The position numbers and the translations under genes are program-made. The notes beneath the pieces were generated by a model. It was not told where the DNA came from, searched no databases, and worked only from the letters and a program-made list of their open reading frames with translations. A DNA stretch of 64,000 bases from a virus (Duplodnaviria > Caudoviricetes): IMG/VR virus record IMGVR_UViG_2893071988_000005, positions 1 to 64,000 of that record; one strand, written 5' to 3'. This document shows, piece after piece, positions 30,216-44,892 of the stretch (positions are counted from its first letter, which is position 1; each line of letters begins with the position of its first letter).

Positions 30216-30244
30216 ATGGTCTCCTTTCTGTGCATGGTTGCGGG

Positions 30245-30529: not shown

Positions 30530-31164
30530 AGCGCCACGATAGGGCAGGCCGCCAAGCCTTGCCGCTCAGCAAGCCCGGTGACGAAATCGGTGGGTGCTTC
30601 GCCGGCCTTGAAGGCGCGGAGCGTCTGTGCCGGGTCCAGTTCGAGAGCGCAGTTGAACGCGGCGGCGGAGTAGGCTGTGGCCAGCGTGGTCCAGAAGCGG
30701 CGGGATTGGCGCCAGTGCTCGAAGTTCGCGCGCTCTTGGGACCAGACGATGAAGGCGAGGGCGGGGACGGTCGGGGAGTAGCGCCCGTCGCCGTAGCGGT
30801 TGTTCTCGATGACACGGTCCCACGGGAGGTTTTCGAGGACGGCCGGCGCGAAATCGAAATCGAAGGCGCCGTGATAGTGCTGGTCGCCTTCGAGCTTCTC
30901 CCACACGGCATGGATGATGCGGCCGGCCTGCTGAGCGACCATGCGCATGCCGGATGTTCCTGCAGCGTCGAAGTCGGCGGCGAACTTGGTCTCGCGGTTT
31001 TCGAGGATCCATTCCCACGCGCAGAGGGCGGCCTCGGTCTCCGCCGAGGTGTAGGTCGTGACGCCGTGGACCTGGCGGCCGCCGGCGTCGGGAATGGGGA
31101 GCGAAGGGAAGTGGTGAACGGCCAAAGGGGTGCCGTCCACCGCGATGTTCACGGTGACGTTCAT
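30526..31164 (-). CDS. Hypothetical phage protein
   Basis: 212 aa, AGGAG RBS; 'EAALCAWE...FDFDFAPAVL'. Confidence 0.7.
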   Translation of the reverse strand: MNVTVNIAVDGTPLAVHHFPSLPIPDAGGRQVHGVTTYTSAETEAALCAWEWILENRETKFAADFDAAGTSGMRMVAQQAGRIIHAVWEKLEGDQHYHGAFDFDFAPAVLENLPWDRVIENNRYGDGRYSPTVPALAFIVWSQERANFEHWRQSRRFWTTLATAYSAAAFNCALELDPAQTLRAFKAGEAPTDFVTGLAERQGLAACPIVAL

Positions 31165-31186
31165 CGTGGTCTCCTGTTGTGGTGGG

Positions 31187-32422
31187 TTACGGTTCGATGC
31201 GGATCACTTCGCCGAACGGGACGCGGGGCGCCCACTGGTCGAAGGCCTGCTTGGTGCCGGTATGCGCCCAAATGACGGGCGCCTCCGGCTTCTCGCCGAA
31301 ATCGTAGGTGCAGAGGTCGGTGAGAAAGATGATGGCGGTAGCGTCGGAGTGGTGCCGCTTGATGTAGCGGAAGGCCTCGGTGAAGGCGGTGCCGCCGCCG
31401 CCGGCAGCGCGCAGACGGATGGTGTCTCCGGCCTGGAATGTCTCGACGTTGCAGACCGCGGCGTCGGTGTAGATGACGGTGATCAGTTCCACATTGCCGT
31501 CGTCGAGGATGCCAGATATCTCGCCGCCGCACTCGGCAAGCATGTCGTCATCGACGGAGCCGGAGGTGTCGACGCAGCAGACGATATGCCTGATACCTTC
31601 GGTCGGCACGATGCTCGGCATGACCAGGCGGTGAGGGAGAAAGCGCCGGCTCGGCCGCGCCCAGCTGTAGTCGCTCATGAACACCTCGTCGGCGAAGCGG
31701 CGAAGCCTTTCCCGCCAGTTCACCTTCGGCTTGGTGATGTCAGCGATGAGCCGCTGCAATCCGGCAGACAGCTTGCCGATGCCGTTGCCTTTTGCCTTTG
31801 CGATAGCCGCCGCCTGCGCCACCTGAGTAGCGATGGTGGTTTCGGCCGAGGCGAGACCCTCCCGGTCATAGGTTGGCGCCGCCGGCATCGTGCCGCCGCA
31901 GCCACCAGGGTCAACGCCGAGGCTCCCTGCGCCTGTGCCACCGCCGCCCGGGCTGGATGCTCCGGTGTCCTCTTCGGAGCGTCCGGACTTGCCGCGGCTC
32001 TGCGACGGCGGCTTGTCGGGGAGGAGCCGGTAGACGTCTTCGGTCGACATGCCTCCATACTGAGGGTCGTAAAGCCCGCCCTTCGGCATCTCGCCGCAGC
32101 TGCTCTCCTTCAGTTCGAAGTTGATGACATAGTCCCCGGCGATGTTCCACTTCTCCGGGTCGCGATTGCCCATGCGGGTGTGGTGGTAGAACACGTCGTG
32201 CAGGATTTCGTGAGCGAGAACAAAGACAAGCTCGCGCTTGCTCAGCTTCTCCACGAACCTGGTGTTGTAGTAGAAGCGCTTGCCGTCAGTCGCCATCGTC
32301 GGGACGCGCGGATCCTCAACGATCTCCTTTTGAACGATCATCGCCCCGAAGAACGGTTGCTCGAACATGAGTGCGGTCTTCGCGGCCAGCAGCTTGCTTT
32401 CGATGTCCAACTTCGGCGGCAT
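31187..32422 (-). CDS. DUF2201-type metallopeptidase plus vWA domain protein
   Basis: 'TMATDG', HExxH 'HEILH', 'WNIAGDYVIN', MIDAS 'DTSGS', 'GGGGT', 'FLTD'. Confidence 0.88.
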   Translation of the reverse strand: MPPKLDIESKLLAAKTALMFEQPFFGAMIVQKEIVEDPRVPTMATDGKRFYYNTRFVEKLSKRELVFVLAHEILHDVFYHHTRMGNRDPEKWNIAGDYVINFELKESSCGEMPKGGLYDPQYGGMSTEDVYRLLPDKPPSQSRGKSGRSEEDTGASSPGGGGTGAGSLGVDPGGCGGTMPAAPTYDREGLASAETTIATQVAQAAAIAKAKGNGIGKLSAGLQRLIADITKPKVNWRERLRRFADEVFMSDYSWARPSRRFLPHRLVMPSIVPTEGIRHIVCCVDTSGSVDDDMLAECGGEISGILDDGNVELITVIYTDAAVCNVETFQAGDTIRLRAAGGGGTAFTEAFRYIKRHHSDATAIIFLTDLCTYDFGEKPEAPVIWAHTGTKQAFDQWAPRVPFGEVIRIEP

Positions 32423-32948
32423 CGGTGGTCTCCTTGTCGCATGATTGCGGTTGACAGGGCGTGGCGCCTTGTTGGGCTATTTCGGCCGCCACCATTTCCG
32501 CCATTTTCTCCCAGGCATCGTTGTCCACCCGCACCTCAAACTTGACTTCGATGGGTGGCAGGATCGCGGGAGGCGGATAGTAGGGCGCGCCGAACGTCGG
32601 CAACCGGACGTATTGAAGCTTGACCAGAGGCGGCGGTTCATTTTGCGCGTTGATCGATTTCGTCACCAACGATGCAATCTCCTCGGAGGAGAGGGCCGCG
32701 ACGAGAGGAGAGGTCTCGACCGAAACCACCACATGGTCCGCGAAGACTAGACGTCCTTCACGCCGGTTCACCTTGCTGAGATGCGTAGAGCAGGTTGCAT
32801 TGAAGCGCCGGGAGCGGACCCAATACTCCAGACGGTACACACGCCTCGGATACCGTCCGTCTCGGGGGCGAAACACGAAGACAACAAGGTCGCTGTCGTC
32901 TTTGCTGCGTCGGATCCGGTAGAACCGGCGAAGTATCTCCGGGGTCAT
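32316..32948 (-). CDS. Small paralogue-family member 2 (extended C-terminus)
   Basis: 'LEYWVRSRRF' and 'LVAALSSEEIASLVTKSI'; ATGA-coupled. Confidence 0.65.
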   Translation of the reverse strand: MTPEILRRFYRIRRSKDDSDLVVFVFRPRDGRYPRRVYRLEYWVRSRRFNATCSTHLSKVNRREGRLVFADHVVVSVETSPLVAALSSEEIASLVTKSINAQNEPPPLVKLQYVRLPTFGAPYYPPPAILPPIEVKFEVRVDNDAWEKMAEMVAAEIAQQGATPCQPQSCDKETTDAAEVGHRKQAAGREDRTHVRATVLRGDDRSKGDR

Positions 32949-33343
32949 CTGCCCCTCCTTTGAAGAGAATAGGTGGTCGCCTTCGCGAGGTCGGCGGGGG
33001 AAAGGCAGGATCGGAGCACATCAATCAAGCGGTCGCCGACGAGGGGGAGCTTGGTGCTGCCGCGGAAGAACATGTCCGGGTCGATGGACTTCACCGGATC
33101 GCGTCCCTCCTTCGTGAGCTTTTCGGTGAGGGCCTTCATCCGCTTCCCGGTCGGGAGGCCCAGCGGCACGTTGGCCACGTTCCATTTCCGCTTGTCGACA
33201 TCGTAGGAAAGGATCCAGTTGGCCACTTCATGGTTGTCCCGGATGCCAATGAAGTACCACTTCATCGTTGCGCTGCCGTAGGGCTGGATGTTTTCCTCGG
33301 GATTGAAGGGGCCGAGGACCTGGCGAACCATGACCATGGTCAC
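32945..33343 (-). CDS. Small paralogue-family member 3
   Basis: 'LSYDVDKRKW' and 'LRSCLSPADLAKATTYSL'. Confidence 0.7.
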   Translation of the reverse strand: MTMVMVRQVLGPFNPEENIQPYGSATMKWYFIGIRDNHEVANWILSYDVDKRKWNVANVPLGLPTGKRMKALTEKLTKEGRDPVKSIDPDMFFRGSTKLPLVGDRLIDVLRSCLSPADLAKATTYSLQRRGR

Positions 33344-33669
33344 CTTCCTTTCTGATACTGGATGGCGGCAGCGATGGCCGCCGCCAGTTGAGCCGGTGGG
33401 ATGTGGGCACGGAGCATCTCCTTCAGGGTGTTCTCCTGGTGCTTCGGCTTGGCGCCGGGAAACATGTCGACCTGCGTCAGCCCTTTGTTAGCCGGCCGCG
33501 TGAAGGTGCGCAGAACCTTGAATGCGCGAGTGTCGAAGTAGAAGATCACCCGCCAGCCTGCCTGAGAGCCGTCATCGAGCACGCCGGAAAACTCCCAGAC
33601 GTAGCAGTCTCTATGCTGGCGCACCTTGGACGGCCCCCAGAGGGCCGTCACTTTCGAGGCCATCGTCAT
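33340..33669 (-). CDS. Small paralogue-family member 4
   Basis: 'VIFYFDTRAF' and 'LRAHIPPAQLAAAIAAAI'. Confidence 0.7.
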   Translation of the reverse strand: MTMASKVTALWGPSKVRQHRDCYVWEFSGVLDDGSQAGWRVIFYFDTRAFKVLRTFTRPANKGLTQVDMFPGAKPKHQENTLKEMLRAHIPPAQLAAAIAAAIQYQKGR

Positions 33670-33676
33670 CGCGCCC

Positions 33677-34678
33677 TCAGTTGTTGAAGAGGACGTCCTG
33701 ATTGGTGACCGTCCAGTCCACGTAGGTCTGGGTGTTCGCCAGCGCGGGATGCATCGAGACGTAGTCCATGCCGAACGTCACCTGGAAATCGCGCGGCAGC
33801 CGGCGCATGTAGGCATCCATCGCCGGGAGCTTGTGCTCGTCGGCGTGGTGAGCAAGGGCAGCGGTGATCGCGAACTGCGCGGCCTTATTCTGCGGGAGCC
33901 GTGCGCTGGCGGGATTGCGGACGATGCTGTCGACGGTCGGAAGGTCCGAGGCCATTTCGATGAAGCTCTTAAGCTCCCCGGCTGCACCCTCGCCAACGTA
34001 GCCGGCGAAAGCCCGGAGCCGGAGCATGTCATCTTCGACATCCATAACCTTGCTCAGCTCTTCCCAGGAGCGCGGGGTCGGGAACGCCATGTTGTCGCCT
34101 TCGCCCATCTGGTGAAGCAGACCGGGCCGGAAGCGGAGGAACGCGATCAGCATGGCGGGAAGCCGCTTGGCTGCGAAGTAGGCGACTGTGCTTTCGAGGT
34201 CAGCTACCACGCCGATATGGGCGAAGCGGTTGCCGAGGGCGGTCGGCATGGCCTGGGCGGCGGCCTTGTCGCTCTTGCGGTTGCCGGCGCCGACGACGCG
34301 CCAGCCCGGGGGAAGGCGGTACTCGCCGATGAAGCGGTCGAGGACGAGACCGAACGCTGCAGCCTGCATCATCGGCGGTGCGGCATTGATCTCATCAAGC
34401 AGCAGGATGCCTTCTTCGCCGTCACGTGCGACCTGCGGGAATTCGTCCGGCACCTTCCACCGGGTGGTATCGGCGGCAAGATCGGGCAAGCCCATCATCG
34501 AGACCGGATCGCGGGTGGAGCAGCGGTAGTCGATGACCTTCCAGTTTCTGCCCTTGGCGATCTGTTTCACGATTGAGGACTTGCCCACGCCGGGCGGCCC
34601 CCAGAGCATGGCGGGGCTATCGACGCGGAGGTAGGTTTCGAGCACGGCGCCAGCCGCGACGATGTTCATGTCGAGCAT
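33677..34678 (-). CDS. MoxR-like AAA+ ATPase
   Basis: 'GPPGVGKS', 'LLLDEIN', 'AGNR', 'ALGNRF', 'FPTPRSWE'. Confidence 0.9.
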   Translation of the reverse strand: MLDMNIVAAGAVLETYLRVDSPAMLWGPPGVGKSSIVKQIAKGRNWKVIDYRCSTRDPVSMMGLPDLAADTTRWKVPDEFPQVARDGEEGILLLDEINAAPPMMQAAAFGLVLDRFIGEYRLPPGWRVVGAGNRKSDKAAAQAMPTALGNRFAHIGVVADLESTVAYFAAKRLPAMLIAFLRFRPGLLHQMGEGDNMAFPTPRSWEELSKVMDVEDDMLRLRAFAGYVGEGAAGELKSFIEMASDLPTVDSIVRNPASARLPQNKAAQFAITAALAHHADEHKLPAMDAYMRRLPRDFQVTFGMDYVSMHPALANTQTYVDWTVTNQDVLFNN

Positions 34679-34717
34679 GTGTTTCTCCTGATGTGCATGA
34701 TTGCTGTGAGCGGCGGG

Positions 34718-34987
34718 TTATCGCCGCTTGGAGGTGCGGGTGATGGAGGCGGCTGCAGCCTTTGCCCTCTCTTCGTCCGGCAGCATCGTGAGGATGTAGT
34801 CCAGCGTGAGGTCTGGGCCGCGATGCTTATAGGTGGCGGGATCGATCAGGTGGCTGAGTTCGAAGCTCCGCTCAGCGACGACGTAGGTGAGCCTGTGGCT
34901 TGCGAATGTGTCCTCGGGGGGGGCGAAGTGCCATTCCAATAAGCTACCGAGATCCATGGCCTCGGACATGAGGCGCACGGCGGTCAT
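34718..34987 (-). CDS. Small paralogue-family member 5
   Basis: 'LTYVVAERSF' and 'ILTMLPDEERAKAAAASI'; ATGA-coupled. Confidence 0.7.
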   Translation of the reverse strand: MTAVRLMSEAMDLGSLLEWHFAPPEDTFASHRLTYVVAERSFELSHLIDPATYKHRGPDLTLDYILTMLPDEERAKAAAASITRTSKRR

Positions 34988-35238
34988 GGCCAGGCCTCGG
35001 TTCCGGCCAGAGACGCGGTCACGCAACGAGCAAGGATTGCCGGAGGGATGCGAGCGATGATGGCGCGTTGTCTACCTTCGCTGATGTCCCGGCGCTTGTG
35101 ATCCCGGCACACCCACTTTCGGTCCACAATCTTGTAGCTGACATAGGCGTGGGTGCGGCCGCGCCAAAGCGCCTCGAATTCAAGTTCCCAAGGCACCCAT
35201 CGCGGCGCTTCCCGGAACTCCAACTCTCTCAGCTTCAT
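34984..35238 (-). CDS. Small paralogue-family member 6
   Basis: 'VSYKIVDRKW' and 'IIARIPPAILARCVTASL'. Confidence 0.7.
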   Translation of the reverse strand: MKLRELEFREAPRWVPWELEFEALWRGRTHAYVSYKIVDRKWVCRDHKRRDISEGRQRAIIARIPPAILARCVTASLAGTEAWP

Positions 35239-35247
35239 CGGCGGCCG

Positions 35248-36156
35248 TCACTTCATGAACGCACTGATGTCGTCGAGGATGCGCTGCGCCTCGTCCGCGA
35301 TGTTTTCGCGGGCGGAATCGCTGTTGCGCAGTGTCTCCGCGTCGTGCCGGGAGAGCCGGGCCAGACGATCGGCGAGGGCGTCAAGCTCCGGATCGCCGGT
35401 GATGTTGAGCGACGGCATCACCTTGACCAGATCGCGGATGTTCTCGACCAGGCTGTCCCGGAACACGCCGGCCGTGGTCTCGCCCGGGCGGGTGGCCGGC
35501 TTGTAGTTGACCATGCGCTCATGCATGTGCTCGACGGCGCCGACGATGCGCTCGTAGACGTTCCGGACCGCGGCGCGCGCCGCCTCCTGCACATCGCGCT
35601 CGATATCCTGCCGGATGCTGTGGACCTGCTCGGCGGCGAGGTTGGCGCGGAAGTCGCCGGCAGTCGGAACCGGCATCACCTTCGTGATGAAGCTGAACTT
35701 CATGGTGATCTCGTCGGCGTCCGGGTAATCCTCCTGCCGGAACATGGTGCCGAGGTGGCGCTGCGCGTCCTGCACATGCTGCGGATAGTCCCGGAGGAAG
35801 CGCTCGACTTCTTTCTCGAACTTGTTGCGCTGGTCGGCCAGCCATTTGGCGTGGGCCATGAAGGCCTGCGCCGCCATGATCCGCTTGCCGTCGTCCATCC
35901 AGGGCAGGGTGCGGCCGTTGAACTCGTTGCGGATCTCGCCGACGAGCTTGGCGATCGGTTTCAGGGCATCCGGTTTCACGATCGCCTTGTTGTAGCGACC
36001 GGCGTCGGATGCGGCAGACTTGCTGCGGTTGACCTCGTTCGTCACATCGCGGTCCAGCCGGCGGCCCGACCACTGCGCGATGGAGAGGGATACGACCATC
36101 GCCCGCGATGCCAGGGCATTGGAGGCGAGGGCGGTGGTGGGGATATTCATGTTCAT
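35248..36156 (-). CDS. DUF3150-like phage protein
   Basis: 'VSLSIAQWSGRRLD', 'TLPW', 'FRQEDYP', 'FRDSLVEN', 'LNITGDP'; usual neighbour of MoxR/vWA pairs (recalled, not searched). Confidence 0.7.
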   Translation of the reverse strand: MNMNIPTTALASNALASRAMVVSLSIAQWSGRRLDRDVTNEVNRSKSAASDAGRYNKAIVKPDALKPIAKLVGEIRNEFNGRTLPWMDDGKRIMAAQAFMAHAKWLADQRNKFEKEVERFLRDYPQHVQDAQRHLGTMFRQEDYPDADEITMKFSFITKVMPVPTAGDFRANLAAEQVHSIRQDIERDVQEAARAAVRNVYERIVGAVEHMHERMVNYKPATRPGETTAGVFRDSLVENIRDLVKVMPSLNITGDPELDALADRLARLSRHDAETLRNSDSARENIADEAQRILDDISAFMK

Positions 36157-36186
36157 GCAGGTCTCCGTGTTGCCATGAGCGGCGGG

Positions 36187-36216
36187 AAAAGAAAAAGCCG
36201 GGCTGAAACCCGGCTT
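36187..36216 (-). terminator. Intrinsic terminator
   Basis: Minus strand AAGCCGGG-TTTCAG-CCCGGCTTTTTCTTTT. Confidence 0.75.
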
Positions 36217-36237
36217 GTGAACCATTCTGAATTGGCG

Positions 36238-36266
36238 TTGACATCGGAGTACTTTTCGAACACCCT
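36238..36266 (+). promoter_or_regulatory. Putative promoter of the CRISPR-like RNA array
   Basis: TTGACA-N17-CACCCT; predicted start ~36273 coincides with the first unit. Confidence 0.5.
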
Positions 36267-36272
36267 CAATTG

Positions 36273-36605
36273 GTCAGCGCATGGAGTTGGCGATGTCGTG
36301 GTGGTCCTGCCCACTTCGTTGGATTGAAACCCTCTAAGTGGCGGTCAAGAGATTGGCTGTTACCAAAGACCAGTCGGCGCCTGGGGCCGGCGATGTCGCG
36401 ATGGCCTTGCCTGTCGTGTTGGATTGAAACTCTTTAAGTGACGGTATGGAGCTTCCTACCCGTTGCGAGAAGTTAGCCGGCGCATCGGGCCGGCGGTGTC
36501 GCAGCGGCCGCGCCTGCTGTGTTGGATTGAAACTCTCTTATTGGTGTTTACCGGCTTTTGCCGCAACGCGGAGCGGCTACCTCAACGGGTAGCCGCTTTC
36601 GTTTC
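36273..36605 (+). CRISPR. Degenerate CRISPR-repeat-like mini-array (3 units, ~100-nt period), no cas operon in the window
   Basis: 36-nt cores GTCG...GTTGGATTGAAAC at 36295-36330, 36395-36430 and 36498-36533, each preceded by a conserved 19-nt hairpin; ends at hairpin GCGGCTAC...GTAGCCGC-TTTCGTTT. Confidence 0.65.
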
Positions 36606-36854
36606 CTGCGCCAGCGGCGCCGGGGAGTTGGTGGCAGCATTCCAGACAAAGCCATTTTCAATTGCTTCTCTTGCGGCTATCGCCTTGCTTTCTGCTGCCA
36701 TCCGCCAATTGCTATCCACCAGCGCGGCGAGTTGGGAACTGGAAAGTGTCGCCTGAACATCAGTGGGAATGCTGTTCCACATCGCATCGAAGCTGCGATC
36801 GTGGGAGCCGATGACGGAAGCCGCTTTTGCTCGATTGTACTTCACGATGCTCAT
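36582..36854 (-). CDS. Small hypothetical protein
   Basis: 90 aa MSIVKYNRAK..., GGAG RBS, lower GC. Confidence 0.6.
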   Translation of the reverse strand: MSIVKYNRAKAASVIGSHDRSFDAMWNSIPTDVQATLSSSQLAALVDSNWRMAAESKAIAAREAIENGFVWNAATNSPAPLAQETKAATR

Positions 36855-36873
36855 GGTTCGTGCTCCAGATGGG

Positions 36874-37203
36874 TTAGTCGATGACACCTACCTTTTTCAG
36901 GTGGGCGGGGTCGTATGAGGTAAGCTCCTCCTGTACGGCTGCGCAGAACCCCTCGCTGTCCCGTTCGAAATCGAACTTTGCGGCGCGGGTGCCGGCAAGG
37001 ATTGCCTGCTGTCGTTGGTCGTTGCTCCAGCCTAGATCCTGGGCGAGGTCGCGAACCTGATCGAGAGTTTTCTCGAAGTTGATGGCGAAGGCCGGGCAGC
37101 GTTCGTTCGCCCACATGAAGCGCAGGAAGGCTTGCACGTCAGCATGCGGGGTCGGCGTTATGTAGGTAGCTGCGGCCAGCATCGCAGCAAGGATCGAATT
37201 CAT
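36874..37203 (-). CDS. Small probable secreted protein
   Basis: Hydrophobic N-terminus, Cys pair (ERCP...GFCA), GAGGA RBS. Confidence 0.6.
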   Translation of the reverse strand: MNSILAAMLAAATYITPTPHADVQAFLRFMWANERCPAFAINFEKTLDQVRDLAQDLGWSNDQRQQAILAGTRAAKFDFERDSEGFCAAVQEELTSYDPAHLKKVGVID

Positions 37204-37258
37204 CGGCGCATCCTCGGATGGAAGATGCGCCGAAGGTAGTATCAGCGTCGGGTGGTGG

Positions 37259-37456
37259 TCAACCTGTGGTCGGTTCGTCCTCGCCGTCGAGGAGATCGAC
37301 GGAGACCGCTTCTCCGCCGCTGTCGAACTCGATCACCGTGAACGACGTGGCCGTTGTGCCCGGTCGCTGCATTATCTCGAACGCCTGGCGGGCGGCATGG
37401 CGAGGGGAACAAGCCTCGACAACATCGATTTCCCACATCACGAGGTAGCGGGCCAT
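37259..37456 (-). CDS. Small hypothetical protein
   Basis: 'YLVMWEIDVVEACSPRHAARQAFEIMQRP'; abuts the ligase stop. Confidence 0.65.
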   Translation of the reverse strand: MARYLVMWEIDVVEACSPRHAARQAFEIMQRPGTTATSFTVIEFDSGGEAVSVDLLDGEDEPTTG

Positions 37457-38335
37457 CTATATGTCCTCCCGAATGGTGACGATGCTGGCGATCAGCGGCT
37501 TGCCGTTCGGCCCGACGCCCTTGTACCGGAAGGTGATGCGCTTGCCCGGTAGGCTGTCACGCCGCGCCCACAGGCCCGCGCGCTGGTCGGCGGAGAGGCC
37601 GGTAGAGAGCTTGAAGCGGATACCGTTCCAGTCCACCCAGAAGCCGCCGAGCGTGCCTTTCCCGACCTTGCCGTCCTTCGCGCTTGAGCGCTTCGTCTTG
37701 CCGATCTTGTTGACGGTCGCCTCGTTGGTGTTCTGCATCTGCTCGAAGGTGCTGACGATGGTGGCTTCGTTGTCGCTGAACCGTTTGAACTTCAGCAGGA
37801 TCGCCTCGGTGACGGTGGAGCGGCCGAACTTGTAGCGGCCGTCGGGGCGGCGAAGCATCACGCCTTCGAAGCCCAAGGTGTCCACCATGGCGCGCTCATA
37901 TTCATCGAACTCGGCCATATTTCGCAGCGGCTCGTGCGGCACCAGTTCGATACGGCCGCGCTGGAAGATGGGGTTGCCGGAAAGGAGAGCCAGGCGGTCG
38001 GTGTAGGGCATGTTGGGATGCTGGAAGTGGTCGAACACATGAAAGCGCCAGTCGACTTCGCCCGGCTTGGAGACCTTGCTCTGCACCGTGGCGAGCGGGT
38101 CGGCTTCGCCGTCGGTGTAGGTGACGATTTCCCCGTCGTGGAACGTTAGGTTAGCGGCTTCGAGCGCGGTCCGGATCTGGGTGTTGCCGAGCGGCTCGAG
38201 GCGCCGGGTGACGAAGCCGTATTCCGGGTGGCCGACGATCCGCCAGCCGTCGTATTTCGGCGTGCCGATCAGCGGGAACTTCATCTCCTCGCGCTCGACG
38301 GGGGAGGCGAGGACGGGTTCAAACTTTGTGGGCAT
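37457..38335 (-). CDS. ATP-dependent DNA ligase
   Basis: Motif I 'KYDGWR', 'DGEI', 'FHVFD', 'EGVMLR', 'LLKFKRF', OB-fold tail. Confidence 0.9.
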   Translation of the reverse strand: MPTKFEPVLASPVEREEMKFPLIGTPKYDGWRIVGHPEYGFVTRRLEPLGNTQIRTALEAANLTFHDGEIVTYTDGEADPLATVQSKVSKPGEVDWRFHVFDHFQHPNMPYTDRLALLSGNPIFQRGRIELVPHEPLRNMAEFDEYERAMVDTLGFEGVMLRRPDGRYKFGRSTVTEAILLKFKRFSDNEATIVSTFEQMQNTNEATVNKIGKTKRSSAKDGKVGKGTLGGFWVDWNGIRFKLSTGLSADQRAGLWARRDSLPGKRITFRYKGVGPNGKPLIASIVTIREDI

Positions 38336-38362
38336 GGTGGTTCCTTGTTCGCATGATTGCGG

Positions 38363-38680
38363 TTATCCCGCCGCGTACTGGATGGATGCGGCGATGCACT
38401 GGGCTTTGATTTCTGGCGATATCCTCGACAGGAGGACGGCGTGGAGGCGGTCACATACGCAGTGAGGCCGTGGCCTGCAGGTGCCGTGATAGCTCCAAGC
38501 GGGCAGATACGCTCTTTCGCCGATCTGGTAGCAAATGTACCAGTGCGGCCCCTCGGCCCCCTCGAACCCATCTAGACGCCCAAAGCGGATGTACAGAGAC
38601 GAACCTCCAAGCGTCTCGCAGGTGATCGCCATCTCGTCGATGAGCCGGTGAGCGAGGCTTTCACCGCTCATGGCCGCCAT
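38363..38680 (-). CDS. Small paralogue-family member 7
   Basis: 'ICYQIGERAY' and 'LLSRISPEIKAQCIAASI'. Confidence 0.7.
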   Translation of the reverse strand: MAAMSGESLAHRLIDEMAITCETLGGSSLYIRFGRLDGFEGAEGPHWYICYQIGERAYLPAWSYHGTCRPRPHCVCDRLHAVLLSRISPEIKAQCIAASIQYAAG

Positions 38681-39054
38681 GTCCCCGCCGCAAACCTGAT
38701 TGAGGCGGCAGCGCAGTACGCCAGGTCTCGTTCGCTTAGGGTGGCGCGAAACAGAGACGTGATTTCTTCGGGCATTCGGGCCGGAACATCGAGCGCATAA
38801 AATTGCCCTCCCTGGCCAATCGGGGGAGGTGCGGCGCTCCGCGGGAATCGCATGTGTTCAGAGGTGAACACGCGATCAGCAAGACTGTATCGAAGGGCGT
38901 AAGCGCCGTCCCCGCCATCGGGCCAAGTCCATCTCACTTCGTCTGATGATTGCCAGGGCATGCGATCGGGGTACTGTTCAATGATGCTGCGAATATGGTC
39001 GTCGAAAGACAGCGCAGGGCGTGAAACAAACTTGCCGAAGGGGATTCGTACCAT
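38668..39054 (-). CDS. Small paralogue-family member 8
   Basis: 'LRYSLADRVF' and 'FRATLSERDLAYCAAASI'; TGATG-coupled. Confidence 0.7.
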   Translation of the reverse strand: MVRIPFGKFVSRPALSFDDHIRSIIEQYPDRMPWQSSDEVRWTWPDGGDGAYALRYSLADRVFTSEHMRFPRSAAPPPIGQGGQFYALDVPARMPEEITSLFRATLSERDLAYCAAASIRFAAGTWRP

Positions 39055-39350
39055 CAGCCGATCCTTCGCAGGGACGCGTTCACGCACATCGCAACCTGCT
39101 CCGGGCTGAGCATCGCCCGCAACTCATCGCACTGATCGTCCGACGCATACCGGATAGTTGTGTCGCCTGCATCGCCTCCAGCCGGGCAGGTGTAGAAAAA
39201 GGCGCGGAAGAGGCGCTCGGCGGCGAGGTAGGAGAGAAAGAAGCCGTCGTCATATGGATCGCGATACTTGAACCAGATGAAGTTGGCCTTGTTGAAGTCG
39301 AGCGAAAGCCCGGCCGTGGGGAGTGGAGCGTCGGGATCAGGCCGCGCCAT
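39054..39350 (-). CDS. Small paralogue-family member 9
   Basis: 'LSYLAAERLF' and 'LRAMLSPEQVAMCVNASL'; AGGAG RBS. Confidence 0.7.
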   Translation of the reverse strand: MARPDPDAPLPTAGLSLDFNKANFIWFKYRDPYDDGFFLSYLAAERLFRAFFYTCPAGGDAGDTTIRYASDDQCDELRAMLSPEQVAMCVNASLRRIG

Positions 39351-39867
39351 TGCGATGCTCCTGCTGCCGGCTGGAGAGGACACCGCGCAGGACGGCAATG
39401 CAAAGCGCGATAGCCTCCCGCCCGGAGGGGCGGAGGTCCACATCGGTGAGGCCGGCCCAATCGACAGCCGGGCTCAGTTCGGAGAGCAGGCGCGCTCCGT
39501 GCGTAGGGCAGTTGAAGTCCGGCTGCACCCATGCGTCATCGGAGACGCAGCAACTGGCGACACGGTAGGACCAGCCGGGCAGGGCGATGCGCACCAGCGT
39601 GCGGGCAGCGTCGAGAGAGGAGGTGAACGGCAAGCTGTCCCAGATCAGACCGAGATCGCCGTTGTCGTACTGCAGGCCGCACATGCCGCGCTGGTTCTTG
39701 TGGTGCGACCAGGTCGGATAGTTCGCCCATGCCCAGGCATAGCCGGTCCTATCGCCGAGCATTTTCTCTGCGCCGACGCGCAGCGCGGCATCGATCTTGG
39801 CATCAAGCCACCGGCAGGGGCCGGGTGCAGCCGCCAGCAGATTGATGAGGGAGGGGAGATCGGTCAT
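39337..39867 (-). CDS. Hypothetical phage protein
   Basis: 'LAAAPGPCRWLDAKI...PFTSSLDAARTL...LPGW...AIALCIA'. Confidence 0.7.
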   Translation of the reverse strand: MTDLPSLINLLAAAPGPCRWLDAKIDAALRVGAEKMLGDRTGYAWAWANYPTWSHHKNQRGMCGLQYDNGDLGLIWDSLPFTSSLDAARTLVRIALPGWSYRVASCCVSDDAWVQPDFNCPTHGARLLSELSPAVDWAGLTDVDLRPSGREAIALCIAVLRGVLSSRQQEHRNGAA

Positions 39868-39895
39868 GGTGGTCCGTCCATGTTGGGAGAGTGCG

Positions 39896-40081
39896 ATGAA
39901 AAAGGTGAAGCCGCCGCGCGAGCTGGCCGCCCGCGCGCTTTGCAGTTCAAGAGGTCTGCCGGAGAACACGAAGTTCGAGGGCCGGCCCATGTGGGAAAGC
40001 CAGCTCGAGGAGGTGGATGTGGTGCTGAAAGCGGCGCTCCCGCCCGAGGAGTGGGAGCGGGTGAGAAGGGAAGGGCCTTAG
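39896..40081 (+). CDS. Small protein on the opposite strand
   Basis: GGGAG RBS; 'PPRELAARALC...FEGRPMWES'; fills a gap between minus-strand genes. Confidence 0.6.
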   Translation: MKKVKPPRELAARALCSSRGLPENTKFEGRPMWESQLEEVDVVLKAALPPEEWERVRREGP

Positions 40082-40118
40082 CCGATATGCCGAAGGGCTT
40101 CCCGCTCTTTGTCGGCGG

Positions 40119-40427
40119 TCATTGAAGTACTTCGCGGCTACCATCCGGCAGGGCGATCACCGTGTCAGCGATATTGCTCGGTTGCCCGAATTTCGCATTG
40201 AAGAGGGTTTCACCAGCCGGCGTGATCTCGAAGTCATGCTGCCCGTGCAAGGCGACGTATTCGCCGCTCGCCAATGTCAGGGCGGCGAAGACGAGCTGGA
40301 GCTTGACCGCATCGGGGATTGCGGCGGCGTGCAGCAATTCGTGCCGGTTCACCCGTGAAACACCCTTGTTTTTGGCCCGAAGGAGCAAGTCGAGAACGCA
40401 CCACTGAGCGTCAGTCAGATTGGCCAT
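40119..40427 (-). CDS. Winged-helix-like hypothetical protein
   Basis: GGAGG RBS; 'LTDAQW...FEITPAGE'. Confidence 0.55.
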   Translation of the reverse strand: MANLTDAQWCVLDLLLRAKNKGVSRVNRHELLHAAAIPDAVKLQLVFAALTLASGEYVALHGQHDFEITPAGETLFNAKFGQPSNIADTVIALPDGSREVLQ

Positions 40428-41208
40428 GATCGCCTCCGGGGGCGGCTCCGTCCGTGTCTGTGGTGACCACAGGCCATTGCCGGATAAGAAGATCATCCGG
40501 GATCGGGGCTTTCCGGGTCATTTGCTTCATGAAGAACGCTCGGCCGAGCGCTGCGCTCTGATCCCGCAAATAGCGGAAATCATCCGGGTCGGTGTGGCGG
40601 GCCTTGTGCGATCCTTGATCGGTCTCGCCGCCCGTGATGATCAGGTCCGGTGCATACCGATCGAGGATGATGCGGCTGAGGAGCGGCTCGTAGCTGCCGA
40701 AGGTGAAGAGCGGCGACAGCGAATGCTTCACCTCCCAGAGCTTCATCCGGTCTCGGTCGTATTCCGGCTGGTTGGCGATCGTCGCGCCGATGGCGACATT
40801 ACGCGGGAGCATGCGGTGACCTCGCGCCGGATCGGTCATTTTCGTGACATTGCCGATCCGCTTGGTTAGGAGCAGCCAGATCAAGTTTGGCGTGGCCTCG
40901 ATCAGGTTCATGAGGTCGTAACGCCACATCTCATCGACCTCGTTGTCGAAGACGTCAGCGAGTGAGGCGCAGAACACGCGTGGCCGGGTGCCACTGGCGG
41001 CAGCTTCCTTGTCCCAGGCGATTGGCTTGCGCCAATTTGCCCTGCCTGTGCGCTGGCGATCCTCGCCGGCACCCCACTGCACGCGGCCGTACCGGTTCGC
41101 CATAAGGTTTTCCGCATAGCACCCGTCACAGGCCGGGGAGACTTTCGTGCATCCGATCCACGGATTGAATGTATGGTCGGTCCATTCGATCTTGCTGTTT
41201 TCAGCCAT
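40411..41208 (-). CDS. Phage Gp37/Gp68 (DUF5131) family protein
   Basis: 'SKIEWTDHTFNPWIGCTKVSPACDGCYA', 'FCASLADVF', 'LLTKR', 'GGE', 'FFMKQ'. Confidence 0.9.
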   Translation of the reverse strand: MAENSKIEWTDHTFNPWIGCTKVSPACDGCYAENLMANRYGRVQWGAGEDRQRTGRANWRKPIAWDKEAAASGTRPRVFCASLADVFDNEVDEMWRYDLMNLIEATPNLIWLLLTKRIGNVTKMTDPARGHRMLPRNVAIGATIANQPEYDRDRMKLWEVKHSLSPLFTFGSYEPLLSRIILDRYAPDLIITGGETDQGSHKARHTDPDDFRYLRDQSAALGRAFFMKQMTRKAPIPDDLLIRQWPVVTTDTDGAAPGGDHGQSD

Positions 41209-41755
41209 GATCGCCTCCGGATGTTCCTATGGCGTCGGGGAATGCGGCATCAAGCGATGCGAGGTTTTCGCGCTCCTGGTCGAGCGCGCTTTTGAGAGAG
41301 GCGAGGCTGTCTTCGGCCTCCCTGATGCGTCCCTCGAAGTGCTCGATGCCGATGCGCGCATCCTTTTTCGCCCACGCAACCACCTTCGCCCGGTCGTTTG
41401 AGAACCGGTTCTCGTACATCATCTCGCCATCGTGAGTGACGTTGGGCCAGCCCAGTTCCTCGCATTGCTTTTCGATGATCTCCGCGCCGCGCCAGGTGTA
41501 GACCGGTATGGAGAGTTCGAAGGTGTCCTCCTGCCGGACCAAGCGGCGCAGGGTCTCGGGATCGCCCTTCATCTCGGCCTGATACCTCATCAGGTCGTCG
41601 TTCATCGTGCGATCATCATCTTTGACGATCTTGCCGTCCCGATTGATGACGATGATGTCGTGGATGTAGGGCGATCCGATGCAGATACCGTCATCGGTAA
41701 GCTGCACGCCGTGAACGATGCGATAGTGTTCTTTGACAGCTTTCCAGCCCATCAT
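41201..41755 (-). CDS. Hypothetical phage protein
   Basis: 'MGWKAVKEHYRI...CIGSPYIHDII...CEELGWPNVTHDG'. Confidence 0.75.
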   Translation of the reverse strand: MMGWKAVKEHYRIVHGVQLTDDGICIGSPYIHDIIVINRDGKIVKDDDRTMNDDLMRYQAEMKGDPETLRRLVRQEDTFELSIPVYTWRGAEIIEKQCEELGWPNVTHDGEMMYENRFSNDRAKVVAWAKKDARIGIEHFEGRIREAEDSLASLKSALDQERENLASLDAAFPDAIGTSGGDHG

Positions 41756-42075
41756 TCGCCCCCGTTCGATGATGTGGCGGAGCCCTCGCGCGCAGCATCG
41801 AGAAACGCCTTGTGGGCCCCATCTTTCGCCGTACGGAGCAAAACGGCATGCTCGTTCATGAGTTGGGCGCCGGCCTCGCGGAGCATTCGACTGACGGCCA
41901 TCAATTCGTGATGGCGGCGCCGAGGGCGGCCGAGGAGAAACGTACCGGGCAAAGCCTTGTGCTCTCTTGTGGCGCCTTCGTGAAGTTGCTGGAGGATCTC
42001 ATGTGCGCGGCGGAGCCCAGCGGCCTGCTCGAACAGGTCTGGGGAGCGCAGTTGAGACGTGCGATTTGTTGCCAT
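41752..42075 (-). CDS. Hypothetical protein
   Basis: MATNRTSQL... after AGGA; stop overlaps the next start. Confidence 0.5.
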   Translation of the reverse strand: MATNRTSQLRSPDLFEQAAGLRRAHEILQQLHEGATREHKALPGTFLLGRPRRRHHELMAVSRMLREAGAQLMNEHAVLLRTAKDGAHKAFLDAAREGSATSSNGGE

Positions 42076-42130
42076 GTCGCGGTCCTGTCTATGTTGAAAA
42101 AATCCGAAGGAGGGGCGGTGGGGCGATGCG

Positions 42131-42748
42131 TCACACATAGCCGAGGCTCTCCTGGGTTAGCGTATCCAAGATCGTGACGCCTTCCGAGATCTTGGTATCG
42201 ACGGAGATCGTCTTGAAGTGGTCGAACGCGCGGTTGTGGGCGGCAAGGAACTTGGATGCTTCCTTGCCGATGTTTTCGATGAAGAGTTTGCCCTCCAGCA
42301 CTGCGAGGCACATTTCAGCGATAACGTCATCCCGAACGAACTTCGGAATGGCGCGGGAAACCGCCTTGTTGATGAGCTTGAAAACCTCGTCTGGTGACAG
42401 CGTGATCTTCTTTATCGAACGCTCTTTCGCATATCGCCGCTTGTTCCTGGCGCGCTGTTTTTCGATGGTCTTCCAGTAGTAATCTCGCTGATAGGCGCGC
42501 TCTTTTTCGCGCGCACCTTCAACGAGCTTTGCGGCATCCCTGCGGGCCTTCCAGTAGGGGAGAAGCCTTTCCCGGTTGCGCTCTCGGAACTCCTTTTGAA
42601 GCTGGCGCATACGCTGTTTCTGCGCCTTCGTCCGCGTCGGGTATCTATTGCGAGCGCCCCAGTTCTTGGAATGCCGACGCCGCTCTTCCTTCGCCATAGC
42701 CGCCCATACTGAGGGCAAGAACCCGTACTTGTTGGGCTCCTCATCCAT
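42131..42748 (-). CDS. Basic helical protein with sigma-like C-terminus
   Basis: Arg/Lys-rich repeats; 'RDDVIAEMCLAVLEG...TISVD'. Confidence 0.6.
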   Translation of the reverse strand: MDEEPNKYGFLPSVWAAMAKEERRRHSKNWGARNRYPTRTKAQKQRMRQLQKEFRERNRERLLPYWKARRDAAKLVEGAREKERAYQRDYYWKTIEKQRARNKRRYAKERSIKKITLSPDEVFKLINKAVSRAIPKFVRDDVIAEMCLAVLEGKLFIENIGKEASKFLAAHNRAFDHFKTISVDTKISEGVTILDTLTQESLGYV

Positions 42749-43909: not shown

Positions 43910-43924
43910 GTAGAGGGGAGGCGG

Positions 43925-44298: not shown

Positions 44299-44299
44299 G

Positions 44300-44872: not shown

Positions 44873-44892
44873 TGAGGAGACCTTTCTGATGG

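Follow-up and report, generated by a model that had tools for sequence, protein, structure and literature searches.

Phage-borne mimics of CRISPR repeats can inhibit by repeat mimicry alone, and a type I-C example, RacrIC1, has been reported (PMC10651486). By the definition given there, a Racr is a solitary unit, and SRUFinder drops full matches that are clustered within 100 bp. Viral Cracrs, by contrast, include arrays: the main text of the relevant report (bioRxiv 10.1101/2024.10.29.618823) gives 219 viral candidates, 30 arrays among them, with nine two-spacer arrays for type I-C, and describes the guides of an array as matching different variants of one CRISPR type. For the host-encoded CrePA, bioRxiv 10.1101/2024.01.05.574328 places a −35 element directly downstream of the CreA target. 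The substrate of Cas5c, as given in PMC8524198, has a 7-bp stem, a loop of ∼5 nt, a 2-nt 5′ overhang and an 11-nt 3′ overhang that starts from U-G-G, where the RNA is cleaved. Recognition of the repeat depends on this trinucleotide and the 3′ overhang, whereas neither the loop nor the 5′ overhang is read. Changes close to the cleavage site are tolerated by SmuCas5c but not by BhaCas5c (PMC8524198).

Sequence comparison supports the locus described here as an array of CRISPR-repeat-like RNAs, carried by a phage, of the Racr/crlRNA type and apparently directed against a type I-C host. It lies on an IMG/VR virus record assigned to the Caudoviricetes (78,496 bp, 92% complete), of which the first 64,000 nucleotides form the stretch analysed (the window). 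The record carries phage genes for a terminase, portal, head-protease, DnaB, clamp, RecT and ligase. No Cas7, Cas5d or Csd1 was found in the 78.5 kb, although the part missing from the record could hold one; the positive control of the Csd1 search (G001) was detected. The array is thus virus-encoded and stands outside a CRISPR-Cas locus.

Reading of the sequence and a repeat finder both show three tandem units of 100–103 nt at 36270–36575 on the plus strand. Each unit is built in the same order, with a 6-bp hairpin, GAT or GGT, a 36-nt look-alike of a type I-C repeat, and a tail. The in-register copies start at 36273, 36373 and 36476, at spacings of 100 and 103 nt, and over 82 nt the second and third copies are 73% and 67% identical to the first. 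All three repeat look-alikes end at the 3′ side in an invariant 12-nt handle, TTGGATTGAAAC, and the first 15 nt of the tails are conserved; the segments between repeat cores are 64 and 67 nt long and structured. The parts are as follows.

36239–36267, plus strand: promoter-like TTGACA (36239–36244)-N17-CACCCT (36262–36267), read directly
36273–36291, plus strand: hairpin 1 of unit 1 (6 bp, 7-nt loop), then GAT; consensus fold
36295–36330, plus strand: repeat-like element of unit 1 (psiR1), GTCGT, an 8–9-bp stem and TTGGATTGAAAC; reading, repeat finder and fold
36331–36372, plus strand: guide-like tail of unit 1 (psiS1), beginning CCTCTAAGTGGCGGT; cognate target not found
36373–36391, plus strand: hairpin 1 of unit 2, then GAT; consensus fold
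36395–36430, plus strand: repeat-like element of unit 2 (psiR2); consensus fold and pairing
36431–36475, plus strand: guide-like tail of unit 2 (psiS2), beginning TCTTTAAGTGACGGT; cognate target not found
36476–36494, plus strand: hairpin 1 of unit 3, then GGT; consensus fold
36498–36533, plus strand: repeat-like element of unit 3 (psiR3); consensus fold and pairing
36534–36574, plus strand: guide-like tail of unit 3 (psiS3); matches a segment of the host locus L244 at 33/35 and the L244 site 1436–1459 at 19/24
36575–36605, plus strand: terminator-like hairpin GCGGCTACC/GGTAGCCGC with a TTTCGTTTCC tail; reading and fold
36195–36216, minus strand: hairpin resembling an intrinsic terminator, lying between array and DUF3150 gene start (36156); terminator scan

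An earlier, sequence-only reading of this DNA had claimed three units with 19-nt hairpins and GRT linkers, three 36-nt cores, and spacer-like segments with a common 5′ start. The hairpins and the linkers (GAT, GAT and GGT) were recovered by reading and by the repeat finder, the cores are letter for letter those it had given, and the tails do share their first 15 nt. The handle is specific to the array at the level of exact matches, with three in the window, all on the plus strand and all inside the array; allowing up to two mismatches gave six matches in the window where 3.0 are expected. Over the whole 78.5-kb record, the only match outside the array to TGGATTGAAAC with at most one mismatch is at 8252, within a coding region.

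The same reading had proposed a promoter in front of the array and a hairpin with a T-rich tail behind it, and each of these held in part. TTGACA-N17-CACCCT is indeed present and, judged by its position, would put the transcript start near the beginning of unit 1, but the match to consensus is weak (2/6 for CACCCT as a −10) and a sigma-70 scan gave no promoter-like site in 35800–37200. The 3′ hairpin folds at −23.6 kcal/mol (z −3.6), but it is absent from the terminator-scan list, in which the minus-strand hairpin at 36195–36216 alone appears. The latter is context and is outside the plus-strand RNA. The plus-strand hairpin overlaps the stop codon of a minus-strand 90-aa ORF (36582–36854).

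The Rhizobiales type I-C arrays compared here have 32-nt repeats of the form GTCGCC..GGAGGCGTGGAT[T/C]GAAAC and 33–35-nt spacers, and order-level I-C arrays show GTCGC, a stem-loop and TGGAT[T/C]GAAAC. Common to these repeats and to the phage cores are a 5′ GTCGC, which reads GTCGT in unit 1, a stem-loop in the middle and a 3′ TGGATTGAAAC, which bears out the claim that the cores carry type I-C repeat ends. Further points of likeness are the 5′ GU overhang, the GC-containing stem-loop and the 3′ UGGAUUGAAAC. A repeat likeness defined to subtype, including the Cas-binding parts, is therefore found in all three units, with one extra U. The phage elements differ from real repeats in being 36 nt rather than 32 nt long, in having 8–9-bp stems with one to three G-U pairs that vary from unit to unit, and in an additional U that separates the stem from UGG. 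Set against the Cas5c substrate, they have the 2-nt 5′ overhang and the stem-loop, but the stem is 8–9 bp and the 3′ overhang is 12 nt (U-U-G-G). That recognition relies on U-G-G together with the 3′ overhang agrees with the pattern of invariance among the phage elements, although with 36 nt and a 12-nt overhang instead of 32 and 11, cleavage by Cas5c is not assured. Nor is this a bona fide CRISPR array: the units are 67–73% alike and not near-identical, and in place of 33–35-nt variable spacers there are segments of 64 and 67 nt that share their first 15 nt.

Folding favours the plus strand. Over hairpin 1 and the repeat stem, 44/45 cells pair on the plus strand compared with 36/45 on the minus strand; the psiR1 stem has one U-U mismatch, and in the hairpin 1 helix all 18 cells pair across the three units. 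Four stem pairs change on both sides, although with three copies only, and with 22/500 shuffles as high. The stem covariation and plus-strand-only G-U pairs that had been claimed are thus present, and the covariation support from three copies is weak. Strand-specific G-U pairing points to an RNA rather than to sites in duplex DNA, and the combination of 67–73% divergence, a 12/12 handle and stems kept paired through changes that work on one strand only suggests selection on an RNA. The stability of single units is not unusual relative to shuffled sequences (z −0.25, −0.90 and −1.45), and for units 2 and 3 the structure of minimum free energy is not this one but an extended fold that pairs the handle. 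The 5′ arm of the hairpin can alternatively pair with the handle (27/27 cells, columns 2–10). Global folds of 342 nt show a slight preference for the plus strand (z −2.68 versus −1.99), with inter-unit pairings dominating. Four sequencing runs were examined, all as contigs; soil contigs (X2, 36084–36509) and sludge contigs (X7, 36329–36589) contain part of the array with no differences, so they offer no variation for testing covariation, and the array is outside the coverage of X5 and of the RNA-labelled X12.

A host counterpart was found in L244, a metagenome contig on which Pfam identifies the C-terminus of Csd1 (Cas8c), Cas7 and DUF1508, and whose Cas7 has 100% identity to one under the name Shinella sp. 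838; there are Shinella genomes in which Cas7 is at 99–100% identity to that of L244. Further downstream come the DUF1508 gene and, as in the phage, a hairpin, a repeat-like element (1927–1959) and a handle. A covariance model of the three phage units matched L244 1902–1998 over its full length (39.5 bits, E 5e-10 in 666 kb), taking in the upstream hairpin, with which hairpin 1 of unit 1 aligns, and CGGCG-N-TGTCGC. The 35 nt after the L244 handle agree with psiS3 at 33/35 positions, of which the search pattern demanded just 10, and include 17 contiguous matches; the phage array and L244 have 28 contiguous bases in common. No second GTCGC occurs in the 46 nt between the L244 handle and the contig end.

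L244 also contains a partial target for its own guide. TTC followed by TCTCTGATTGGCTTTAAACGGCTT lies at 1433–1459, between cas7 and the DUF1508 gene, and matches the L244 guide at 20/24 (mismatches 6, 12, 13 and 16) and psiS3 at 19/24; none of 2000 shuffled L244 sequences reached 20/24. The target ends ∼25 nt before TTGACA-N16-TGCAAT upstream of the DUF1508 ORF, an arrangement of target and −35 that resembles CrePA. L244 thus has the degenerate repeat, the guide and the nearby PAM-flanked target of a CreA/CreR-type host regulatory RNA. Together, unit 3 and L244 show a pattern that is a signature of such host RNAs and of viral Cracr arrays. With this hairpin, repeat-like element and handle, the 33/35 guide and the TTC-flanked partial target, the proposal of an array of the Racr/crlRNA kind facing a I-C host gained its main support. 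A literature search found no paper tying DUF1508 to a Cre-type module.

L244 is the single host counterpart found, and it is a guide match for unit 3 alone; none was found for units 1 and 2. Cognates of psiS1 and psiS2 were sought in 30 I-C loci and in 132 and 401 family-level genomes and none was detected, and in 401 order-level genomes there were three matches at three mismatches as against two in the control. Type I-C Cas7 is present in 40/401 order-level genomes; none of the 30 I-C loci taken from such genomes has a psiS-like target or a DUF1508 gene alongside. A pattern search of 11 and 401 genomes gave nothing above control, a DNA search with the L244 module returned repeat-level matches only in 132 and 401 family-level genomes, and the plasmid I-C locus of Rhizobium sp. 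Q54 is without an L244-like element. When a 20-kb phage stretch was compared with 401 genomes, short conserved-gene matches were seen in 103 and no close prophage was found. The phage lineage appears to meet I-C immunity, as judged by an I-C array from the Rhizobiaceae (G822), two spacers of which partly match the phage ORF 16819–17946, at 27/35 (21 contiguous) and 23/34, with TAC and TGC at the expected position of the TTC PAM. These came from a later set of 120 spacers, whereas 478 unique I-C-array spacers gave chance matches only.

A comparable case served as a positive control. A prophage of Fastidiosibacter lacustris has a mini-array of a build like that of the phage array, and the first 17 nt of its guide 2 are identical to those of the guide in a mini-array that immediately precedes the host cas5. 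That host guide has a TTC-flanked target matching at 19/22, with mismatches at exactly 6, 12 and 18. The prophage was the useful match of a scan of a genome collection with GTCGC-N17-23-GTTGGATTGAAAC, which otherwise gave about the chance number of stretches (106 in all) and no array of at least three copies; the pattern covers repeats of at least 35 nt and is silent on GTTGG junctions in 32-nt arrays. The 90-aa ORF and a 109-aa ORF (36874–37203) were compared with ORFs beside the Fastidiosibacter array, and the likeness was not significant. A scan of IMG/VR with GTTGGATTGAAACYCT yielded 39 loci of unrelated context, save one weak case (L039), and a scan with GGATYGAAACYCTYTWAKTG yielded none.

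On the phage, the array is situated in a region of replication and partition genes (ParB-like, DnaB, clamp, ligase), with ligase, DUF3150 and ATPase genes as neighbours. The 90-aa and 109-aa ORFs have no match in Pfam, PHROG or PDB sequences, and the former has no tblastn match among phages. Whilst a single DUF3150 protein used as query found no relative in IMG/VR, an alignment search found 204, of which 80 were kept. Not one of these 80 related loci with the DUF3150–ATPase module carries the array motif or an upstream tandem repeat, and hence the array is accessory to the phage; the 90-aa, 109-aa and ligase genes are likewise in none of the 80, and the covariance model run over them gave best E-values of 0.037, 0.19 and 0.36. 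The array DNA has no BLAST counterpart among 50,697 phage records or in 72,556 plasmids, and the array finds none elsewhere in the phage's own genome. Against phages, the sole match to 30000–45000 of the window is 600 bp at 75% in Ochrobactrum phage POI1126, far from the array. A permissive Rfam search of 35500–37500 gave hits at chance level, the best (U12, E 0.083; SorY, E 0.19) being far below gathering.

The reading that we favour, and think fairly likely, is that host Cas5c and Cascade process the array into guide-like RNAs, and that these act both as competitors of crRNAs and as guides that bring Cascade to a regulatory site belonging to the host itself. The phage would then probably be borrowing the CRISPR proteins of its host and thereby weakening host immunity. 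A single plus-strand transcript of ∼340 nt would run from ∼36270 to the hairpin at 36575–36605. Its processing would release at most three RNAs, all of them having a normal 5′ handle as well as a guide-like segment. These would load into the host Cascade (Cas5c–Cas8c–Cas7), rivalling real crRNAs, and RNA 3 at least would guide it to the PAM-flanked, partly complementary cas7–DUF1508 site that the host regulatory RNA would also use. The phage might in this way take over a CRISPR-linked regulatory or guard circuit, with no Cas3 cleavage triggered. Units 1 and 2 would be diverged paralogues of unit 3, presumably fitted to variant host loci. What the sequences show is the anatomy, the likeness to repeats, the homology between unit 3 and an element of a host cas locus, and the PAM-flanked self-target of that element; we infer that the array is transcribed, processed and loaded into Cascade, that repression follows, that the DUF1508 gene has a role, and that units 1 and 2 have targets.

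This agrees with only part of what had been suggested about targets. The idea of Cascade being steered to cas promoters gained a TTC-flanked partial target, but one that lies between cas7 and the DUF1508 gene and is not a known cas promoter. Targeting of competitor phages found nothing in its favour among the phage records and plasmids searched, and the hexamer TTGACC, read on the opposite strand of spacer 1, is trivial and without support. A bolder extension, which we hold to be possible but doubtful, is that the array is a three-guide crlRNA operon of a new build, in which each guide gene copies the host design of hairpin, degenerate I-C repeat and guide in full; a switch between hairpin and handle would time or limit processing by Cas5c, the RNAs would, during the phage's disabling of immunity, keep silent a hitherto undescribed DUF1508 guard module of Shinella I-C loci that is Cascade-repressed via its own crlRNA, and the three guides would answer to three host variants. 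If this were true, DUF1508 would represent a new type of guard effector, one under repression by CRISPR, and the array would serve the phage as a dedicated counter-guard.

The most serious alternative is that the look-alikes act as pure decoys in the manner of a Racr, sequestering Cas5c, Cas7 and Cas8c in aberrant complexes, with inter-repeat segments that have no guide function. Repeat mimicry is known to be sufficient for inhibition, with a type I-C Racr among the examples in PMC10651486; a normal guide seems poorly served by an additional U at the junction where cleavage would fall and by inter-repeat segments that are long and structured; and targets of psiS1 and psiS2 were not found in the 30 I-C loci or the 401 order-level genomes. 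A decoy, however, needs neither a guide shared with a host cas locus nor a PAM-flanked self-target, both of which psiS3 brings with it, and it would not account for conservation of the first 15 nt past each handle. Racrs are moreover solitary by definition (PMC10651486). We regard this explanation as unlikely. It is considerably more improbable that the array works without any CRISPR connection, as a structured small RNA (regulating in antisense, or soaking up a protein through the GGA motif) or as DNA sites such as iterons or partition sites. The surrounding ParB-like, DnaB, clamp and ligase genes, the resemblance of three evenly spaced repeats to iterons and the lack of an Rfam family (U12 and SorY being the best) would suit such a function. 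Yet in each of the three units 5 + 11 fixed bases flank a stem-loop and fit the type I-C repeat in the correct order, the homology to the cas-operon element spans the handle and 35 further bases, and the strand-specific G-U pairs favour RNA over duplex DNA.

We give an equally small chance to an inert relic at the DNA level, a captured piece of a host cas locus that was triplicated and is now functionless or provides homology for recombination or integration. The 28 contiguous bases identical to L244 would be explained, and solitary repeats of viruses were at one time suggested to mediate integration into CRISPR loci (PMC10651486). Against this, the copies have diverged to 67–73% while retaining the handle at 12/12 and both stems in pairing by one-strand-only changes, the array owns a terminator-like hairpin, and its neighbours are ligase, DUF3150 and ATPase genes. 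Marginally less credible still is a phage mini-CRISPR array that arms the host Cascade against competing phages or plasmids. The layout does recall repeats and spacers on a phage in which no cas genes were found, and such uses are mentioned in PMC10651486, but the would-be spacers are 64–67 nt long, structured and alike at their 5′ ends, the repeats are just 67–73% alike, and there is no match in the 50,697 phage records, the 72,556 plasmids or the phage's own genome, the sole match found being the host cas locus L244.

If the favoured interpretation, guide-like RNAs acting through the host Cascade, is right, the locus has consequences beyond this phage. Hijacking of host Cas proteins by viral crRNA-like RNAs is a recent discovery, mostly for types V-A, I-E and I-F, and the present array would contribute an example of type I-C from a phage of the Rhizobiaceae, bacteria found in soil, in sludge and in association with plants. 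The matching host element makes this a host–virus pair that is directly testable, and the DUF1508 gene with its own guide RNA is a possible new CRISPR-linked guard module in Shinella. The design of the units, in which a hairpin is added and the stretches between repeats are long and structured, may reveal the way in which RNAs of this kind are processed or protected, and compact natural multi-guide I-C units could be of interest for Cascade-based repression tools.

In relation to the known systems, the array resembles a Racr (PMC10651486) in being an intergenic phage mimic of a CRISPR repeat with promoter-like sequence upstream, and RacrIC1 provides a I-C example. It departs from them in that its three units, repeating every 100 and 103 nt, are not solitary, with no gap of 100 bp free of another repeat; with 64–67 nt between its elements, SRUFinder would cluster them as an array and discard them. 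Its guide-like segments also have a host counterpart. L244 compares well with CreA/CreR and with the CreTA and CrePA modules (bioRxiv 10.1101/2024.01.05.574328) by its degenerate repeat, its partly matching PAM-flanked target in the same locus, the mismatches including 6 and 12, and the placing of the target just upstream of the −35 of a small gene. It differs in being type I-C and in the small gene being DUF1508 (a candidate guard or toxin), and the phage array is a mimic of such a module and not the module itself. Differences from the viral Cracr arrays, as these are presented in the main text of bioRxiv 10.1101/2024.10.29.618823, are the three units where only two-spacer I-C arrays are given, the 64–67-nt inter-repeat segments compared with guides of 21–24 nt in the tested I-E array, the 3′ overhang of 12 nt and not 11, and the extra hairpin that opens each unit and is found in the host gene too. 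The host here belongs to the Rhizobiaceae, and the string ‘Rhizobi’ occurs 0 times in that main text, while its tables S1 and S2 may list the locus or the Shinella element. The likeness to those arrays extends to the phage location outside a cas locus, the several repeat-like elements per unit, the guides that are variants of one theme and the inclusion of type I-C among the types; and psiS3 matches the host cas-locus guide far past the 9-base PAM-proximal criterion used there.

The virus record is 78,496 bp long, with an estimated completeness of 92%, and the window, its first 64 kb, encodes a terminase, a portal, a head-protease fusion, a ParB-like protein, a DnaB-like helicase, a clamp, a RecT-like protein, an ATP-dependent ligase, a DUF3150 protein and a MoxR-type ATPase. 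The array lies in a 420-nt non-coding stretch between two minus-strand genes. A repeat finder returned an 82-nt unit three times, with starts at 36273, 36373 and 36476 (spacing 100 and 103 nt), units 2 and 3 being 73% and 67% identical to copy 1. Direct reading and alignment divide each unit into four parts, listed here with the neighbouring genes.

Array neighbours and parts of the repeated unit
35248-36156, minus strand: DUF3150 gene
36582-36854, minus strand: 90-aa ORF
Unit part 1, plus strand: 19-nt hairpin (hairpin 1)
Unit part 2, plus strand: linker, GAT or GGT
Unit part 3, plus strand: 36-nt core, comprising GTCG[T/C], a stem-loop and then TTGGATTGAAAC
Unit part 4, plus strand: tail, starting with YCTYTWAKTGRYGKT

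The cores agree letter for letter with those of the sequence-only reading, and the 12-mer at their 3′ end has three copies in the window, all of them in the array and on the plus strand. No Rfam family fits the array. The hairpin with a T-rich tail reported after unit 3 is indeed strong (36575-36605, z −3.6). The proposed promoter upstream of unit 1, TTGACA-N17-CACCCT, fared less well: the sequence is there, but it is a weak match and the promoter scan made no call. A terminator-like hairpin on the minus strand (36195-36216) precedes the start codon of the DUF3150 gene by only ∼40 nt, leaving no room for a promoter, so that expression of the DUF3150-ATPase operon would depend on read-through or on a promoter located within the array region. 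Contigs from a soil sequencing run (X2) carry window 36084-36509 and those from a sludge run (X7) 36329-36589, with 0 differences in the array parts; the same phage or prophage is therefore present in several habitats. The array region was not covered in the RNA-labelled run.

In the consensus structure the three units share hairpin 1 (6 bp) and a core stem of 9 pairs, and the handle, the invariant 3′ end of the core, is left single-stranded. Covariation of the core stems, with G-U pairs that work only on the plus strand, had been noticed from the sequence and is borne out: 44/45 cells hold standard pairs on the plus strand, with four pairs changed on both sides, while only 36/45 are paired in the minus-strand mirror structure because eight G-U pairs turn into C-A. 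Since there are three copies, and 22 of 500 column shuffles matched the observed covariation, this strand-specific evidence is suggestive, not strong. Single units show no extra stability over shuffles (z −0.25, −0.90 and −1.45), and overall the promoter and thermodynamic support for an array RNA is weak. For units 2 and 3, energy minimization favours a different, extended hairpin that pairs the handle with the 5′ arm of hairpin 1. This alternative pairs 61/69 cells, with columns 2-10 paired in 27/27 cells across all three units, and joins the bases just before and within the 5′ arm to the handle YGUUGG-A-UUGA. Such masking of the handle could act as a processing switch, or could be an accident of GC-rich palindromes.

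Regions of the alternative fold
36270-36330, plus strand: unit 1
36370-36430, plus strand: unit 2
36473-36533, plus strand: unit 3

Comparison of the cores with CRISPR repeats of related bacteria establishes their likeness to the type I-C arrays fetched from the same bacterial order, which lie beside I-C cas genes and have 32-nt repeats, for example GTCGCCTCCCTCGCGGAGGCGTGGATCGAAAC and GTCGCCTCCTTCGCGGAGGCGTGGATTGAAAC, and spacers of 33-35 nt. According to PMC8524198, the type I-C repeat has a 7-bp stem and a pentaloop with overhangs of 2 nt and 11 nt, and what is read in it is mainly U-G-G together with the 3′ overhang, rather than the loop or 5′ overhang. The phage cores retain the 2-nt 5′ overhang, the stem-loop and the complete UGGAUUGAAAC, and their stem letters vary freely between units. 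They differ from canonical repeats in being 36 nt long rather than 32 nt, in an additional U before UGG that extends the overhang to 12 nt, and in stems of 8-9 bp rich in G-U pairs.

A host counterpart came from scanning a metagenome collection for the handle followed by ten degenerate tail bases. It returned 13 loci. One of them, L244, a contig of 2,004 bp, stands apart, most of the others being ordinary I-C arrays matched by chance; it codes for the Cas8c/Csd1 C-terminus, Cas7/Csd2 and a 57-aa DUF1508 protein. Its Cas7 shares 100% identity with a protein that NCBI assigns to Shinella sp. 838 and 99% with further Shinella proteins. The DUF1508 gene is followed by a hairpin, a degenerate I-C repeat, TGGATTGAAAC and then TCTCTTATTGGTGTTTAACGGCTTTTGCCAACG; phage unit 3 has TCTCTTATTGGTGTTTACCGGCTTTTGCCGCAACG at the corresponding place, the two agreeing at 33/35 positions when only ten were imposed by the search pattern. 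A covariance model of the phage units can be aligned to L244 along its entire length (39.5 bits, E 5e-10), with both the hairpin upstream and the CGGCG-N-TGTCGC junction included; what each phage unit copies is therefore the complete design of the host gene rather than the repeat alone. GTCGC does not recur in the 46 nt between the element and the contig end, so the L244 element is not a normal repeat-spacer-repeat.

Directly 3′ of the cas7 stop (L244 1433-1459), TTC, the type I-C PAM (PMC8406640), is followed by TCTCTGATTGGCTTTAAACGGCTT. This putative target matches the locus's own guide at 20/24 positions (mismatches at 6, 12, 13 and 16) and psiS3, the guide-like tail of phage unit 3, at 19/24; 0/2,000 shuffles of the contig reached 20/24, the PAM not being demanded. 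Guides in type I complexes leave each sixth base unpaired. Judged by sequence, unit 3 is homologous to a Shinella cas-locus element that has a PAM-flanked self-target. The target overlaps a terminator-like inverted repeat and ends ∼25 nt upstream of TTGACA-N16-TGCAAT, which precedes the DUF1508 ORF; the CrePA module is arranged likewise, its −35 coming right after the CreA target (bioRxiv 10.1101/2024.01.05.574328).

Putative module of L244
1428-2004, after cas7: TTC-flanked self-target, promoter-like TTGACA-N16-TGCAAT, 57-aa DUF1508 gene, then hairpin, degenerate repeat and guide

This stretch is a candidate new guard module under CRISPR repression, with DUF1508 as its protein. No such module was found beside 30 other Rhizobiales I-C loci, nor did the literature search bring up a paper linking DUF1508 and CRISPR in this way. 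Some Rhizobiales I-C loci (L270 2490-2590; L265 3040-3170, minus strand) have mini-arrays of one or two repeats, the second repeat being degenerate, which stand alone or just ahead of the main array and may be host regulatory crRNA-like genes.

As a positive control, the logic applied to the window recovers a clean, textbook-looking pair in Fastidiosibacter. A genome scan found, in a Fastidiosibacter lacustris prophage and adjoining a lambda-type terminase, GTCGC-hairpin-GTTGGATTGAAAC twice and a truncated third hairpin with a T-run, making 2.5 units with two near-identical guide-like segments. Type I-C cas genes are present in this genome (Csd1, E 9e-191), and a two-repeat mini-array lies immediately upstream of the cas5 start. 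The guide of this host mini-array equals the second prophage guide over its first 17 nt and has a TTC-flanked target 250 nt away, with 19/22 matches and mismatches exactly at 6, 12 and 18. The elements look like a clean Cracr/CreR pair, that is, a viral crRNA-like RNA and a host regulatory guide.

Fastidiosibacter elements
L064 6326-6442 (= G001:C1:142326-142442), minus strand of L064: prophage mini-array, type I-C repeat-like
G001:C1:150816-150854: further copy
L151 1501-1585: host element

The DUF3150 protein has many relatives at 50-57% identity, those named being from Rhizobium, Ensifer, Pseudorhizobium, Aurantimonas, Ancylobacter, Pseudovibrio and Roseibium. Relatives are encoded at 204 IMG/VR loci, and 80 of these entered the comparison. 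The DUF3150-ATPase gene pair is conserved among them; a handle-like motif in the right place, the upstream tandem repeat and the neighbouring small genes were found in 0/80, and the covariance model gave no match below E 0.03. The array is therefore an accessory insertion in a variable spot. In the divergent intergenic region of another IMG/VR viral contig (L039 7854-7963, minus strand), a degenerate GTCGC-hairpin is followed by GTTGGATTGAAAAC, 17 nt, GTTGGATTGAAAC, CCTCTTGGCGGGGC and a small hairpin; its covariance-model score is low (20 bits) and does not count as independent, the locus having been retrieved by the handle pattern. In the genome collection, single elements of GTCGC, a good hairpin and GTTGGATTGAAAC, some then with a T-run, occur in unrelated genomes, those of Vicinamibacterales, Limisphaerales, Undibacterium and two Pedobacter (loci L106, L124, L127 and L075/L108), and are possible solitary repeat units.

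Cognates of psiS1 and psiS2, the tails of units 1 and 2, were not found in the 30 I-C loci or in samples of 401, 132 and 401 genomes, and a search for the phage's own host genome identified no match. Two spacers of a large Rhizobiaceae I-C array (G822, repeat GTCGCCTCCTTCGCGGAGGCGTGGATTGAAAC) partly match the window ORF 16819-17946, both in this phage without the TTC PAM, and give a modest hint that the lineage is under I-C pressure.

Matches of G822 spacers
17005-17039: 27/35, 21 contiguous, flanking triplet TAC
17562-17595: 23/34, flanking triplet TGC

The best reading, and in our view a probable one, is that of a three-unit type I-C Cracr-type array. Several points count against it: the inter-repeat segments are long and structured, and the one host counterpart found, L244, is truncated by the contig end; the weak promoter and thermodynamic support, the RNA-labelled run that misses the array, and the searches that found neither cognates of psiS1 and psiS2 nor the phage's host genome weigh in the same direction. 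Under the Cracr-type reading, a plus-strand transcript would be cut by Cas5c despite the extra U, the processed RNAs would load into Cascade, and Cascade carrying phage RNA would repress the cas7-DUF1508 site, with DUF1508 in a guard role and units 1 and 2 serving variant hosts.

Phage solitary repeat units were shown to work as RNA anti-CRISPRs, one type I-C unit included, and the finder used for them throws out repeats clustered within 100 bp (PMC10651486, Camara-Wilpert et al.). Viral Cracr RNAs are described in bioRxiv 10.1101/2024.10.29.618823 (Liu et al.) as copies of the host's CreR/CreA guides that act both as competitors for Cas proteins and as repressors of cas or guard-toxin promoters, and the guides in one array address variants of one system. 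The main text of that preprint makes no mention of Rhizobiales (‘Rhizobi’, 0 occurrences). Its survey gives 219 candidates and 30 arrays, those of type I-C being nine two-spacer arrays, in contrast to the three units of the phage array.
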